A DNA stretch of 64,000 nt from a virus (taxonomy: Duplodnaviria > Caudoviricetes), in the IMG/VR virus record IMGVR_UViG_3300035676_000001; one strand, 5' to 3'. This document shows positions 1,252 through 59,620 of this stretch, piece after piece (within the stretch, counting starts at the first letter, position 1; each line of letters begins with the position of its first letter). A program made the position numbers and the translations under genes. A model generated the notes under the pieces. That model ran no database searches and was not told the origin of the DNA. It saw only the letters and a program-made list of their open reading frames with translations.

Positions 1252-1824
1252 TTACAATACCGCGTCTATGACTGTACCGACTAATCCACCAAAGAGACCT
1301 TTAATTACATCAGCACCAACATAACTATCAGAAAATACTTTAGTAGTAAAATCTTCACCTAAAGCCTGAATTAAAGTTCCAGTAGATCCTTTTACATCTA
1401 CCTTATTTCCTTGTATTAAAGTTCTACCAGATCCACTTTTTAATGTAATATTTCTTCCTGCCTTCAGCATAATATCTTCATCTGCTGAAAGTATAATGTT
1501 TGCTGCCTTAATACGAACCGTGCCGTGAGTTGAAACTACATCAACATTTCCACTCAAACCAGCGATTACAATATCTTCATTCTTTCCATCACTCTTATAT
1601 CCAGATATAATTTCAACACTATAATCATTCTTGATCGATAAACGACCAGAGTTACTTAATGAAATAGATGATTGAGTATCTTGTGTAGCGGCATATATCT
1701 TATAAACATCTGTTCCACTTGCACCCATTGCTGGATTAGAAGTATCAATCCTAAACTGAGGATTGAAACTCATCAATTGTCTTGCGTAAATATTTTGATC
1801 TGGTCTTTCTGCTACTGTGGGCAT
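1252..1824 (-). CDS. Baseplate spike/gp5 C-terminal-like beta-helix protein
   Basis: Directly after gp5; repetitive beta-strand pattern (IILSADEDIMLKAGRNITLKSG). Confidence 0.5.
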   Translation of the reverse strand: MPTVAERPDQNIYARQLMSFNPQFRIDTSNPAMGASGTDVYKIYAATQDTQSSISLSNSGRLSIKNDYSVEIISGYKSDGKNEDIVIAGLSGNVDVVSTHGTVRIKAANIILSADEDIMLKAGRNITLKSGSGRTLIQGNKVDVKGSTGTLIQALGEDFTTKVFSDSYVGADVIKGLFGGLVGTVIDAVL

Positions 1825-15819: not shown

Positions 15820-16486
15820 AGAGCTCCAGTTTATCTCTAACAAACTTTCTAATGTATTCGGAGAGGAGTTTGATGTACTTCCCTTTGTTGTATTCTTCAT
15901 AGACGACGCATTCTCCATTTTCACAAGCCATTAAAATTACAAGTTTTTTCACAGGAATATCTGTGAGTTCATAGAACATACAAGCGTATGCTGCTGCCTG
16001 AACAAAATAGTGTTCAATCCACTCTCGTGGTTTTGGTTTTTTAGAAGTTTTGAAATCAATTATCGCTAATTCGCCGTTGTATTCAGCAATACAATCAACG
16101 GTTCCCGCAATACCTAATTGCTTACTATATAGGGAACCTTCAAGGGCGTAAATATTATTTATACGATTAAGTTCTGGTTTCGCAATCTTAAACAGAAAAT
16201 CCGATAGAGGTTGAACTTTGGGGAGTTCTTGATTTTTAAGATGATGTTCAGTCATAAGGTGCATATCAGTTCCACGACTGGTTGCCGCTTTTGTGATACG
16301 CTCTGCTTCTTCATCACCAACTTTCTTGCGCCATTTAACAAAGATTTCCTTATTAAAATGACTGGTCACCGATGTAATGGAGACCAGTCGGAGAAGTTCT
16401 TCTTCATCTGGAACTTTATAATATCGAACACCATCTATAGTCTCCCGTTCAAGTTCAGGGAGAGTCACATCAATATGATTGAACAT
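15806..16486 (-). CDS. PD-(D/E)xK exonuclease (Cas4-like fold)
   Basis: SITSVTS..RGTDMH..AGTVDCIAEYNGELAIIDFKTS..YFVQAAAY. Confidence 0.85.
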   Translation of the reverse strand: MFNHIDVTLPELERETIDGVRYYKVPDEEELLRLVSITSVTSHFNKEIFVKWRKKVGDEEAERITKAATSRGTDMHLMTEHHLKNQELPKVQPLSDFLFKIAKPELNRINNIYALEGSLYSKQLGIAGTVDCIAEYNGELAIIDFKTSKKPKPREWIEHYFVQAAAYACMFYELTDIPVKKLVILMACENGECVVYEEYNKGKYIKLLSEYIRKFVRDKLELYGTK

Positions 16487-17238
16487 TAAAATCCTGCTTC
16501 TAATTTAGCAATAATGTATTCCTTGACTAGTCCAGAACGAACAATATCATCTACACCAAATTCAATTATATCAAAAGAAGGCATTTTACGCAAGATGCTC
16601 ATAAAATCCACGATTCCATTACGCTCATTCGTTTTCTGCAAATCTGATTGAGAAGCATCACCACAGAACATAATCTTGGAATTTTCACCAACACGAGTAA
16701 TAATAGAATCGAGTTCGTGTGCCGTACAGTTTTGAAACTCATCTACGATGACGATCGAATTATCAAGCGTAGTTCCACGAAGGAATGAAGTACTCCAGAA
16801 CTTAATCGTTTCTTGTGACTTGAGATTTCCGTAGAGCATCTCAAATTCAGAATCACTAGGCATCTGGAACATATACTTTACCATATTCTTATAAGGAATC
16901 TGATAAATATCAGACTTGTCCTCATAAGAACCTGGAAGGAAACCAATTTCTCTAGTTGCTACGAGAGAACGAACAAGATAGATTTTCTCAAAAGGAGTTC
17001 TTTCGTCTAAGACTTCACGAAGAGCATTATAAAGAGTGATAAAAGTTTTACCAGTTCCAGCGCAACCATAAGCAACAAGATGCTTTTGATTTGCATAGGA
17101 TTCAAAAAGTCTCTTCTGATTATCTGTTAGAGGTTCAATATCAACCAGATAATCAGAACTTAATGGTTTTCTACGCTTCATTTGACGAGTAGTAAGACCA
17201 ACCCCGATAGGTTGCTCTGCTCTTTTTCTTCTAGCCAT
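16486..17238 (-). CDS. phoH: PhoH-like ATPase
   Basis: GCAGTGKT Walker A; REIGFLPG; FLRGTTLD; DEFQN. Confidence 0.95.
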   Translation of the reverse strand: MARRKRAEQPIGVGLTTRQMKRRKPLSSDYLVDIEPLTDNQKRLFESYANQKHLVAYGCAGTGKTFITLYNALREVLDERTPFEKIYLVRSLVATREIGFLPGSYEDKSDIYQIPYKNMVKYMFQMPSDSEFEMLYGNLKSQETIKFWSTSFLRGTTLDNSIVIVDEFQNCTAHELDSIITRVGENSKIMFCGDASQSDLQKTNERNGIVDFMSILRKMPSFDIIEFGVDDIVRSGLVKEYIIAKLEAGF

Positions 17239-17505: not shown

Positions 17506-18141
17506 TTAGACCCACTCAAGGGCTTCGGAAACTGCTGGGAATTGTTCGGTAAATACCTGCTTGCAGGCATTTGCAATATCCATATGCTCTTTTTGAGTTC
17601 CGTGAGCAGAACGGAGATTGATGTAATGAATCCAACTACGGCAAGAACCCGTCATATAGATGCGCGTAGGAGTCGCCAGAGGCAGCACAAACCTTGCACT
17701 CTCCTTAGCGACACCGTGAGAGAGAAGTTCCTTGTAGAGGCGCATAGAGTGTGCAAAATGATCTTGAATCTTACTTTGAAGACCCAGTTTCTCATACTCA
17801 GGAATATCATCAATCGAGTTCTGACGATTCTTAGTATCTTGACGACGCAACTCTGGAACAGGAATATATTCAGAAATCAGCGAACTGTCGGCATAACGCT
17901 GAGAGAACTCTTGGAATGTGAAGGACCTGTGCCTCAGAATCTGAGCTGCGATTCCACGATTGGTCTCAATTTCAAGCGTCATAGTAGACTGTTCAAACAC
18001 AGACCAATGATTATGCTTAATACAATAAGCAAGCAACTTGGAATAGTTCTCGTTATCCTGATTAGCAGGATTAGAGACTCGTGCAATGAACGCCATTGTC
18101 TTTTCTGCATCTGGTGTTACGCTAATGAGTTTTACAGTCAT
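17506..18141 (-). CDS. thyX: Flavin-dependent thymidylate synthase
   Basis: HWSVFEQ; QILRHRSFTFQEFSQRY; AKESARFVLP; HYINLRS. Confidence 0.95.
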   Translation of the reverse strand: MTVKLISVTPDAEKTMAFIARVSNPANQDNENYSKLLAYCIKHNHWSVFEQSTMTLEIETNRGIAAQILRHRSFTFQEFSQRYADSSLISEYIPVPELRRQDTKNRQNSIDDIPEYEKLGLQSKIQDHFAHSMRLYKELLSHGVAKESARFVLPLATPTRIYMTGSCRSWIHYINLRSAHGTQKEHMDIANACKQVFTEQFPAVSEALEWV

Positions 18142-18492: not shown

Positions 18493-18528
18493 ATTTTACC
18501 ACAAAAAAAGGAGGGTATCAACCCTCCT
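18493..18528 (-). terminator. Terminator with an embedded sigma70 promoter (TTGATA in the hairpin, TAAAAT at 18493-18498)
   Basis: AGGAGGG-TTGATA-CCCTCCT followed by a T tract; 17-nt spacer. Confidence 0.7.
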
Positions 18529-18533
18529 TAATC

Positions 18534-18635
18534 TTAGGCAACTTGTGGTTGCTTCGCCATATTAATTTGAGCAATTTTGAGAAGTTTCTCTTTTCTTGCC
18601 TTTTCTTTCAAATATTGAACGAAGTATGTTTTCAT
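18534..18635 (-). CDS. 33-aa basic peptide downstream of the glutamine riboswitch
   Basis: MKTYFVQYLKKKARKEKLLKIAQINMAKQPQVA; AAGGAG RBS; flanked by the riboswitch and a terminator. Confidence 0.65.
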   Translation of the reverse strand: MKTYFVQYLKEKARKEKLLKIAQINMAKQPQVA

Positions 18636-18660
18636 AGGTCTGCTCCTTTACTTGGGTAAA

Positions 18661-18708
18661 GTGCGTTCCTTCCCGTGATGGTACTTCCGTCGCATAGCGA
18701 TGAACGTG
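18661..18708 (-). ncRNA. glnA-type (class I) glutamine riboswitch
   Basis: CGUUC-A-UCGC(UAU)GCGA-CGGAAGUA-CC(AUCAC)GG-GAAG-GAACG three-way junction with the conserved E-loop strands. Confidence 0.8.
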
Positions 18709-18788
18709 AATTTATTTATTATAACATATTTTAAAAAAACCTTCGCGTGAGAAAATTTTGCCGGAAAAATTTCCCCCGATATTTGAAA

Positions 18789-19160
18789 TCACTTACGCTT
18801 TTTGGTTTTGGGTGCTTGATAACCCCAGAGTCTAGGATTCACCCGACCATCTGCCCATTCAATTTTCTTGAGAGCATCACCGAACTTATCCCAGTACATA
18901 TCAAAGATATTAGCCATCTTATTGGACCGAGTAATATCATAAGACATTTTTCCACCACGAACATACGAAACCAAGTGAGCATCACTAGGCAGTTGTGGAT
19001 TCTTGGCGTCTACCTTATTGCAATTCTCTTGAATTACTTCACATCCATAACGAGACCTAGAAAGTTCTTTTTCGTGTGTTGTCCAAACTTCATTTGTCTC
19101 ATTAGTGGATGCCTCTTCTTTTCCTGTCGGCATCTTCTTTCGTGTAATATTCTTTTCCAT
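18789..19160 (-). CDS. Conserved cyanophage hypothetical protein
   Basis: Long ORF in the co-oriented block; PSDAHLVSY..YDITRS..IFDMYWDKF. Confidence 0.65.
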   Translation of the reverse strand: MEKNITRKKMPTGKEEASTNETNEVWTTHEKELSRSRYGCEVIQENCNKVDAKNPQLPSDAHLVSYVRGGKMSYDITRSNKMANIFDMYWDKFGDALKKIEWADGRVNPRLWGYQAPKTKKRK

Positions 19161-19185: not shown

Positions 19186-19824
19186 TCAGGAACGACCTCC
19201 CCAATGAATATCTGGGTAAGCTTCTGAAACAATTTCTTTTGTGACTTTATATTTTGTTTGAAGTTGCTTATCTTTTACCAGACAAATAATCTCTGCTTCA
19301 AGAGGATGCAAACCTTCAAGAATAGTAATGAACATTGATTCTCTACGAATGTTGTTCAGACCATCATTACCACCTTTAATAAAGTGATAGAAGTTCTTGA
19401 ACTCTTTACGAATCGTCGTGCGTTGTTGAGTATCATTAATTCCCAACGAGAACGAACCCGTTTCGTGCATTCTACGAATGTCTTCAGTAATCTTCGTGCT
19501 CAGAGACCCACTATAAGAAGTCTGTTCTGAATATCCAGAATAAGGAACAGCCCCTTCTGGAACCATTGAAATAATACTCTCATCAAAGTTCCAAATAAAG
19601 ATTGCTTTGAGAGAAGGATGCTCATACTTCTTTAAAATCTCTACCTTTTTAGCACTTGAACGCTGTCTGGATACGAGGTCCAGAACTTCAAATGCAAAAG
19701 GATTTTTTGGTAAATCTGGAATAACTGCAGGTTCTTTTGCTGCTACAGTTTTCGCTTTACTCGTCGTCTTCTTCTGTGTCGTCGTACTCATAATCGTAAT
19801 CGCTATTTTCAAATCGGAATGCAA
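19186..19824 (-). CDS. Conserved cyanophage hypothetical protein (likely start MSTTT)
   Basis: LPKNPFAFEVLDLVSRQRS..LKAIFIWNFD..LEGLHPLEAEII. Confidence 0.7.
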   Translation of the reverse strand: MHSDLKIAITIMSTTTQKKTTSKAKTVAAKEPAVIPDLPKNPFAFEVLDLVSRQRSSAKKVEILKKYEHPSLKAIFIWNFDESIISMVPEGAVPYSGYSEQTSYSGSLSTKITEDIRRMHETGSFSLGINDTQQRTTIRKEFKNFYHFIKGGNDGLNNIRRESMFITILEGLHPLEAEIICLVKDKQLQTKYKVTKEIVSEAYPDIHWGGRS

Positions 19825-19993: not shown

Positions 19994-20231
19994 TTCTTTT
20001 TCTCCGGGAAACTACTTTTCTTTTCCTCGACTTAAAGGAAAACTCAAAATAGATGGTTACCTCCCGATTTAGAAAGCAAACCATCTTCTCAAAGATGATA
20101 TGGAAGGGCTGGGTCTGCTTTCTTTTTCCTCCATTAAGTATCAATTCAATACCACGATTAAAGTGGTCTTCCTTTTTATTTAGGTTCTTATCAGACAATT
20201 TGCTTCTCTTTGAGGAATTTGATGGTCTCAA
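19980..20231 (-). CDS. Hypothetical protein (start uncertain)
   Basis: Fills the gap between grx and the membrane protein; basic. Confidence 0.5.
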   Translation of the reverse strand: MRPSNSSKRSKLSDKNLNKKEDHFNRGIELILNGGKRKQTQPFHIIFEKMVCFLNREVTIYFEFSFKSRKRKVVSRRKRNVSN

Positions 20232-20427
20232 CGGAACCTCCTAACTTCTGGTCGTCACATACTACTTGGGGGAAAGTAGAACCTTTACCAAATTCAGAAT
20301 AGAACTCGTCGCGGGTAAAGTCTTCACCCAAAGTATACACCACAAAGTTACTATTTGTCAATTCAAGAACCTGTTTGACTTTATAGCAATAAGGGCAATC
20401 TTCTTTCGAATAGACAGTAAAATTCAT
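20191..20427 (-). CDS. grx: Glutaredoxin
   Basis: CPYC active site; TFPQV cis-Pro; GG motif. Confidence 0.9.
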   Translation of the reverse strand: MNFTVYSKEDCPYCYKVKQVLELTNSNFVVYTLGEDFTRDEFYSEFGKGSTFPQVVCDDQKLGGSVETIKFLKEKQIV

Positions 20428-59471: not shown

Positions 59472-59576
59472 TAGTAAGACCATCAGGGAAATGGTGGAGT
59501 TACTATGCTCCCGCCACCCTCAGGCGGGATATGAGAGACGTAATTTATACACCCATAGGTCTCGGTTAACGGGTGT
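59472..59576 (-). ncRNA. PhotoRC-II-like structured psbA leader
   Basis: GAGAC..GUCUC, UCCCGCC/GGCGGGA and ACCAU/AUGGU hairpins in the psbA 5' UTR, matching my recollection of the cyanophage motif. Confidence 0.7.
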
Positions 59577-59620
59577 TGACAATGTTAAGAAATATGAGTA
59601 TTTCGTAACATTTGTTTACC

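Follow-up and report, generated by a model that had tools for sequence, protein, structure and literature searches.

Why would a phage place a peptide of only 33 residues under the control of glutamine, and what kind of peptide is it? These questions are raised by a short locus in a 64,000-nucleotide stretch of tailed phage DNA (IMG/VR record IMGVR_UViG_3300035676_000001), referred to as the window hereafter. The locus is a compact, autonomous transcription unit of a freshwater T4-like cyanophage. It extends from position 18726 to 18501 on the minus strand and contains, in this order, a promoter, a type-1 glutamine riboswitch, a hairpin covering the ribosome binding site (RBS), an ORF of 33 codons, and a terminator. 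The same parts had been pointed out in a sequence-only reading, which listed a TGnTATAAT plus TAAATA promoter, a glnA-type riboswitch, a hairpin CTTTAC-CCAA-GTAAAG overlapping an AAGGAG RBS, a Lys-rich ORF for 33 amino acids, and a terminator; all of them were recovered at the positions given below. Our preferred explanation of the unit as a whole, to which we assign a probability of roughly 60%, is a glutamine-ON switch that delivers a helical effector of the kind used by the host to signal its nitrogen status.

Genomic context and boundaries of the unit

The window derives from a T4-like cyanophage, with minus-strand genes for PhoH (16486-17238), ThyX (17506-18141), a glutaredoxin (20191-20427), and a DUF6433 protein (19186-19824). 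Among cultured phages, S-SRM01, which infects freshwater Synechococcus, is closest, with ~76% identity over the stretch of the peptide unit. According to a search of sequencing runs, mostly DNA metagenomes, the stretch also occurs in wetland, pond, and freshwater metagenomes. The sole RNA run with a related sequence spans positions 18796-19005, which belong to the upstream gene and lie outside the peptide unit. Elsewhere, the window contains a PhotoRC-II RNA motif (59495-59587, minus strand; 82.2 bits versus a gathering score of 39), a photosystem-associated RNA element of cyanophages.

At its 3' end, the unit is closed by an intrinsic terminator (18529-18501, minus strand), for which a terminator scan found a 9-bp stem (18529-18508), a 4-nt loop, and a T run. 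A hairpin followed by a T run is located 3' of the peptide ORF in all relatives, and in three loci one more short ORF precedes it. The boundary of the unit is marked by a promoter-like site of the next gene (18521-18493, minus strand; TTGATA, 17 nt, TG-TAAAAT), which reached 10 of 12 matches plus the TG in the promoter scan. The -35 hexamer of this site, TTGATA, lies inside the terminator loop of the peptide unit and thus creates a compact terminator/promoter overlap; TTGAC or TTGAT is present in the same loop in 10 of 13 relatives. An additional ORF of 27-28 codons is inserted between the helix peptide and the terminator in L023 (6213-6293, minus strand), L041 (3982-4065, plus strand), L053 (7217-7300, minus strand), and L318 (downstream of 1638). 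The products of these four ORFs are strongly hydrophobic, with one predicted membrane helix each.

Aptamer and expression platform

Glutamine riboswitches in T4-like cyanophages and other phages have already been published (PMC9964418, PMC9602691, PMC9004378). The aptamer in the window (18708-18660, minus strand) matched RF01739, the glnA RNA motif, over its full length (1-53 of 53) with 44.2 bits versus a gathering score of 35 (Rfam scan; E 2.3e-6 over the whole 64-kb window and 4227 families). It consists of P1 (CGUUC/GAACG), P2, and a short P3, which comprises only 2 bp in the window. In 12 close relatives, which are viral metagenome contigs fetched by a pattern of the conserved aptamer core, P1 is invariant, and two pairs of P2 and two pairs of P3 show compensatory changes (RNAalifold); the three-stem fold is thus supported. 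Judged by its sequence, the aptamer is a genuine type-1 glutamine riboswitch and a new member of the published class, and it is predicted to bind glutamine.

The expression platform (18664-18642, minus strand) is built around the hairpin CUUUAC/CCAA/GUAAAG (18661-18646), whose 3' arm overlaps the Shine-Dalgarno (SD) sequence AAGGAG (18648-18643), read directly 7 nt before the ATG. Both the MFE and the centroid fold contain this hairpin and extend it by the pairs G18664-C18642 and C18663-G18643. Hence C18663, which is located directly 3' of P1, and the following CUUUAC pair with GUAAAG..GC and cover the RBS. Such an arrangement is common among phages: the bases after P1 pair with the SD zone in 69 of 85 distinct platforms versus 41.5 ± 3.7 (maximum 52) after shuffling of the 5' part, where a platform was counted if three or more of the first six bases 3' of P1 were paired with this zone. 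The closest sister groups (L003 and L006 types) lack the lower part of the hairpin and retain only the top three pairs.

The leader of gifB, which encodes IF17 in Synechocystis sp. PCC 6803 (Klahn et al., 2018; PMC6212724), resembles the phage leader in having an RF01739 aptamer whose post-P1 bases pair with the RBS. In the model for this leader, binding of glutamine captures the C after P1, the blocking helix melts, and translation is switched on (PMC6212724). By analogy, glutamine would also turn translation of the phage ORF on. In secondary-structure modelling, the blocking hairpin persisted with or without the aptamer being forced to form; thermodynamic modelling of the leader is uninformative on this point, because the published mechanism depends on tertiary contacts.

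Contigs of three sequencing runs (X5, X6, and X8) match the window over 18536-18653, including the peptide ORF (15 differences), diverge at 18653, and continue into an L006-type GCACCAAUACC leader. The aptamer with its platform and the peptide ORF therefore recombine as separate modules. Split or double aptamers also occur, namely in S-SRM01 (L001, 2974-3198, minus strand), L323, L327, L318, and L332, where an ORF of ~50-55 codons or a second core is located between the 5' core and the closing GAAGGAACG. These aptamers score 24-33 bits in Rfam, which is below the cut-off.

Promoter and loss of the NtcA box

Upstream of the aptamer, an extended -10 element, TGnTATAAT (18726-18718, minus strand), overlaps with a TAAATA element (18718-18713). 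Both were read directly from the sequence, and the latter was also compared with the upstream sequences of the relatives: it occupies the position of their -10-like element, 6 nt before the aptamer. The promoter of the peptide unit has no -35 element and is therefore missing from the consensus promoter scan; its class and the start site are inferred.

In all 13 loci with canonical aptamers (11 of them distinct) as well as in S-SRM01 and S-CREM1, a GTAN8TAC NtcA box begins 38-44 nt before the aptamer. If transcription starts just before the aptamer, the centre of this box lies near -30; the repressor geometry of NtcA at the gif promoters is -30.5 and -7.5 (PMC6316151). Unlike these relatives, the window contains no GTAN8TAC box, the mark of a gif-type NtcA-repressed promoter, within 120 nt upstream. 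A near-identical strain from another metagenome has 17 extra bases exactly at the promoter spot (18713-18735; contigs of runs X5 and X6), and another natural variant (contigs of the same runs) shows a GTAN8TAC box there. Loss of the NtcA box is thus polymorphic in nature. Going by these sequences, this phage's copy seems to have lost control by NtcA and to rely on the riboswitch alone. As the box is common to all relatives, the copy could also be a degenerate variant.

The peptide ORF is a conserved gene

The ORF (18635-18534, minus strand; ORF list) starts with an ATG at 18635 and comprises 33 codons followed by a stop at 18536-18534. Its product contains 7 Lys and 1 Arg. Its homologue in S-SRM01, which is 79% identical, carries the annotation "hypothetical protein". 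Public protein collections already contain the exact peptide, there as the product of a predicted ORF. When the ORF was compared with its S-SRM01 homologue, 16 of 22 base differences fell on third codon positions, and 13 codons differed synonymously versus 7 non-synonymously; the corresponding numbers for a sister group are 11 and 2. Variant contigs from three other metagenomes also differ from the window mainly at third positions of the ORF. These patterns clearly identify the ORF as a real, conserved gene whose protein sequence is under purifying selection.

This selection bears directly on the alternative that the product has no function, either because translation merely stabilizes or tunes the RNA, or because the unit is a decaying remnant of an operon that once encoded a YRG peptide plus the helix. 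The lack of the NtcA box and of a YRG ORF, which many relatives possess, would fit with decay, and within its family the peptide has diverged most (see below). However, besides the substitution pattern, the unit is set apart from the next gene by a strong terminator and a promoter of its own, units encoding the helix only recur in several phage lineages and in hosts, the exact peptide was found on 5 contigs, and the stretch is present in several freshwater and wetland data sets. We therefore regard a functionless product as highly improbable.

AlphaFold2 predicted a single helix for residues 2-28 (pLDDT 82.6), and in this model the product is a single basic amphipathic helix. The peptide has no hit in Pfam (up to E 10), NCBIfam, or PHROGs, and a feature search of the ESM Atlas returned no usable match for it.

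A family of helical micro-proteins in cyanophages

An exhaustive HMMER search, with a profile built from 12 phage peptides, retrieved a family of 40 clusters at E ≤ 1e-3 (cluster representatives at 50% identity), all with lengths of 28-60 residues. The source records name these "LQLIK" family proteins only as "hypothetical protein". The family consensus is approximately M-K-L-N-x-L-Q-L-I-K-E-Q-K-x-K-E-x-R-R-H-x-A-Q-L. With 16-55% identity to the other members, the window peptide is the most divergent one; it conforms to the helix profile (N-x-L-x-L-I-K/R ... K ... R ... A-Q-L) and aligns without internal gaps. Two members, P0030 and P0033, bridge it to the consensus, as the last twelve residues match in 11 of 12 positions (I for L).

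The association with the riboswitch was also seen at loci collected in another way. Loci fetched via four member proteins, and not via the aptamer, are all situated upstream of ThyX, most of them after the DUF6433 gene, and all have a glutamine aptamer upstream, which is canonical (53.5 bits) in some and split (24-33 bits) in others. The units are diverse in layout. The aptamer is directly followed by the peptide in the window and in the L003 and L006 types; a 45-aa YRG ORF and an overlapping peptide ORF follow it in L007, L023, L041, L053, and L329. A split aptamer enclosing a ~55-codon ORF precedes a YRG ORF and the peptide in S-SRM01 and L323, and a split aptamer precedes the peptide alone in L327. 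Finally, YRG part and helix are fused into one ORF in L026, in P0047/P0049 (~100 marine contigs), and in SCREM1_206 of S-CREM1. The helix is the sole component common to every phage layout. The neighbouring or fused YRG ORFs of the relatives score about 14-23 bits against the Pfam model of DUF4278, the cut-off of which is 25.3.

Among 50,697 phage records, a tblastn search with family members matched only S-SRM01 and S-CREM1, both of which are T4-like cyanophages. The 33-aa CDS of S-SRM01 (QPX47984; MW015081) belongs to the same peptide family and occupies the same genomic slot near ThyX, but this phage has a 55-codon ORF between its aptamer halves. S-CREM1 encodes the peptide as a YRG-helix fusion behind an annotated "glnA" riboswitch (SCREM1_206; OP535465), but elsewhere in the genome, next to regA-like and clamp-loader genes. 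In contrast to these units with their split or double aptamers and YRG parts, the window has a plain single aptamer directly before the helix ORF.

A scan of 185,579 species genomes with back-translated patterns of the YRG ORF and the helix family recovered only three small contigs; the pattern was too stringent to capture the versions of the hosts, and profile searches of whole genomes later found these. The three contigs (L316, L317, and L331) carry the phage cassette and were assigned to MAGs of Bacteroidota, Poseidoniales, and Acetobacteraceae. Most likely, they are phage contigs binned into unrelated MAGs.

Homologues in picocyanobacteria

Picocyanobacteria are the most abundant phototrophs of the ocean and are also common in lakes. 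When 151 cyanobacterial genomes were scanned for the type-2 glutamine riboswitch (Glutamine-II/Downstream-peptide, RF01704), one picocyanobacterium with a genome of 2.4 Mb and three copies was picked out. Behind these copies are genes for a YRG-only peptide, a helix-YRG protein, and a helix-only peptide of 32-33 amino acids. A six-frame search of the whole genome with the phage profile gave exactly two hits (E 2.2e-4 and 2.0), and both are the helix ORFs, each of which is located directly behind a Glutamine-II riboswitch. With a profile that combined the phage peptides with two host rows, 47 of 101 genomes of this host family had a hit at E ≤ 0.01. For 17 of the 20 best host loci, RF01704 at or above its gathering score was found directly upstream. 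The G+C content at the 20 best loci ranges from 0.35 to 0.73; by base composition, this range would fit Prochlorococcus, marine Synechococcus, and Cyanobium. One of the genomes (L344) is that of Cyanobium sp. NIES-981, where the protein is named "DUF4278 domain-containing protein" by NCBI.

In a profile-profile comparison (hhalign), the phage family and the host helix were matched with a probability of 97.5% and an E value of 6.7e-12. The host helix-YRG protein is very well conserved in the alignment, the Pfam model covers only its residues 24-60, so that the helix is outside the model, and the helix is the only confident element of the protein in AlphaFold2. From these alignments, the window peptide is best described as the phage counterpart of the conserved helix with which the small DUF4278/IF17-like proteins of picocyanobacteria begin. 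The link of the unit to the riboswitch-controlled small-protein regulon of cyanobacteria, as assumed in the sequence-only reading, is thereby supported, both by this homology and by the fused or adjacent YRG ORFs of the relatives.

The host units share with the phage unit the homologous helix, control by a glutamine switch, and a terminator after the gene; reference examples are those of Weinberg et al. (2010; PMC2864571), PMM1846 (PMC6316151), and the Cyanobium sp. NIES-981 protein. Genes of 32-33 amino acids that encode the helix only also exist in the hosts. The main differences are that the phage aptamer is of type 1 and that in the host proteins the helix is usually followed by two YRG motifs. 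Published accounts of these proteins that we searched mention the YRG motif or DUF4278 and do not describe the helix: Weinberg et al. (2010; PMC2864571) found YRG in 360 of 429 peptides, which they called "difficult to align", and IF17-like DUF4278 proteins are listed with unknown function by Klahn et al. (PMC6212724) and Bolay et al. What is new here is that the phage family is homologous to host proteins controlled by riboswitches, that the helix is recognized as a module of its own, and that it is the constant payload of the phage units.

Two further observations concern the hosts. Low-GC picocyanobacterial genomes (L350 and L353) encode proteins of ~59 amino acids that contain the helix part with KRLH.AQL twice and lack the YRG motif. 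When a podovirus infected Synechococcus WH7803, the few host genes upregulated at the first time point included a DUF4278 gene and the gene next to it (PMC7885011), which hints that infection itself touches the DUF4278 regulon.

Relation to glutamine synthetase inactivating factors

A homology search against the glutamine synthetase (GS) inactivating factors IF7 and IF17 and against DUF4278 had been suggested in the sequence-only reading. As a comparison set for the IF7-like domain, we used 12 IF17/IF7 homologues from behind cyanobacterial type-1 aptamers and their C-termini (AR..L ... R..SML.R...E.G). Comparison by hhalign was non-significant for the phage family (P 0.054), for the host helices (P 0.31), and for both combined (P 0.19). 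The 33 residues also lack a YRG motif, and the peptide has no Pfam hit that would place it in DUF4278 (PF14105). Because it shows neither IF7-like similarity nor the YRG motif, the peptide is a member of neither IF7/IF17 nor DUF4278. Thus, the proposal of a glutamine-sensing phage with a nitrogen-related peptide is supported by the homology to host proteins controlled by riboswitches, but direct kinship to IF7 or to the GS-binding C-terminus of IF17 found no support.

A sequence relationship was not detected by hhalign, but there are similarities in kind. IF7 (gifA product) and the C-terminal half of IF17 are likewise short, basic effectors that are for the most part helical or disordered and are produced at plentiful nitrogen. 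In the gifB unit, too, a small basic regulator protein is encoded downstream, and glutamine is expected to switch its translation on. The phage unit differs from gifB in being phage-borne, in lacking the NtcA box, and in encoding a 33-aa product without YRG/DUF4278 or IF7-like, GS-binding similarity. For IF17, the DUF4278 half was reported to confer stability and the other half activity. A 62-aa cyanobacterial mini-IF17 (L312) consists of one YRG motif plus an IF7-like helix, and thus has the layout of a YRG part followed by a short basic helix in common with the phage fusions. By this analogy, the peptide may act like the effector half of IF17.

Should the peptide then be regarded as a GS inactivating factor in the strict sense, a phage analogue of IF7 that binds host GS and switches it off at high glutamine? 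The regulatory logic would be the same as for gifB/IF17 (PMC6212724), a basic helix would suit the electrostatic mode of action of the IF7/IF17 effectors (PMC6316151), the YRG-helix fusions of phages share the layout of the mini-IF17, and the NtcA box of the relatives at approximately -30 has the repressor geometry of gif promoters. However, the profile comparisons with the IF7-like domain speak against this interpretation, the conserved basic residues are spaced differently and, according to reviews, earlier work saw no inactivation of GS by IF-type factors in marine picocyanobacteria. A complex prediction with two copies of picocyanobacterial GlnA and the peptide, both supplied as alignments, scored 0.06 (mark 0.32), which carries no weight for or against binding. 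On balance, a strict GS inactivating factor is unlikely, and any action of the peptide on GS would be purely conjectural.

Another possibility is suggested by the modular architecture. The helix might need YRG/DUF4278 peptides as its partners in a two-part regulator. The phage helix would then pair with YRG-only peptides of the host or compete with its helix-YRG proteins, and not GS but a PII-type protein or another protein of nitrogen signalling would be targeted. The modules are indeed fused in both orders, helix-YRG in hosts and YRG-helix in phages, and also occur as overlapping adjacent ORFs. One host genome has YRG-only, helix-only, and fused genes, each behind its own switch. YRGxxY resembles the T-loop of PII (Weinberg et al., 2010, supplement), and the window phage has no YRG ORF of its own at this locus. 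However, units with the helix only are frequent and conserved, in phages as well as in hosts, which indicates that the helix can stand alone, and in the AlphaFold2 model the helix does not pack against the YRG part. An obligate two-part regulator therefore appears quite improbable.

Proposed mechanism and physiological role

The preferred reading, a glutamine-ON unit that delivers a host-type effector, would work as follows. Host RNA polymerase would start at the extended -10 promoter, a few bases before the type-1 glutamine riboswitch. In the absence of glutamine, the RBS would be paired with C18663, the C adjacent to P1, and with the bases that follow it. Once glutamine is bound, the C would be drawn into the aptamer, the blocking helix would open, and the 33-codon ORF would be translated; the terminator would end the RNA after the ORF. 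In hosts, expression from the type-2 switch is up under nitrogen excess (PMC6212724, PMC6316151). From this use of the switch at plentiful nitrogen and from the host homology of the peptide, it follows that, at high glutamine, the phage most likely supplies an extra dose of a host effector of nitrogen status. We infer that its physiological role would be to push nitrogen assimilation of the infected cell toward the nitrogen-replete setting. Candidates for its molecular target are GS, a PII-type signal protein, and the YRG partner peptides.

A bolder version of this idea is possible but doubtful. The N-terminal helix, and not the YRG/DUF4278 repeats, might be the conserved effector of the picocyanobacterial glutamine-riboswitch regulon, which cyanophages would have captured and re-wired to a type-1 aptamer in order to force the infected cell into a nitrogen-replete state, for instance through a shutdown of GS or another step of nitrogen assimilation. 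If this were true, the post-translational nitrogen regulator that is missing in Prochlorococcus, Synechococcus, and Cyanobium would be this peptide; the regulation of GS and nitrogen assimilation in picocyanobacteria is called unclear in the literature (PMC6316151). Irrespective of the target, one helix of 30 residues is the payload that the glutamine-switch units of phages always carry, whether or not a YRG part accompanies it. The unit would be a clean case of a virus that ties a host-like regulator, at the level of its expression, to a metabolite inside the cell. The finding directs experiments to a very small and easily synthesized peptide, and S-SRM01 and S-CREM1 provide two cultured phage-host pairs that could be used for tests.

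Other peptides behind phage type-1 aptamers

The T4-like Methylophilales phage Melnitz (PMC9004378) has an aptamer of the same class (52.8 bits) that is also followed by a short basic ORF, but it infects an OM43 host, the peptide belongs to another family, and in the published reading the switch is tied to the tmRNA gene. In Melnitz-1 (L002, MZ577095; ~1376-1554, minus strand), the aptamer is located downstream of the tmRNA gene, and an unannotated basic ORF of 32 codons begins 26 nt later. In the database record, it is the other strand that carries an annotated CDS instead. Control of ssrA by the switch, as published, therefore looks questionable.

In the viral contigs retrieved with the aptamer pattern (L003-L121), nearly every phage type-1 aptamer is followed within 20-35 nt by an ORF of 26-65 amino acids. 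Recurring families of these peptides are MTLW..YCR.., MNRFDHL...NG.GTSGY, MNYRDFE...RPRCEKNILS.DPRLQ, MTKY...NPFYP, and YRG repeats, and most of the peptides start with an aromatic residue followed by a basic helix. The same peptide types are present in MAG contigs of SAR86, SAR11, and SAR116 (L122-L241).
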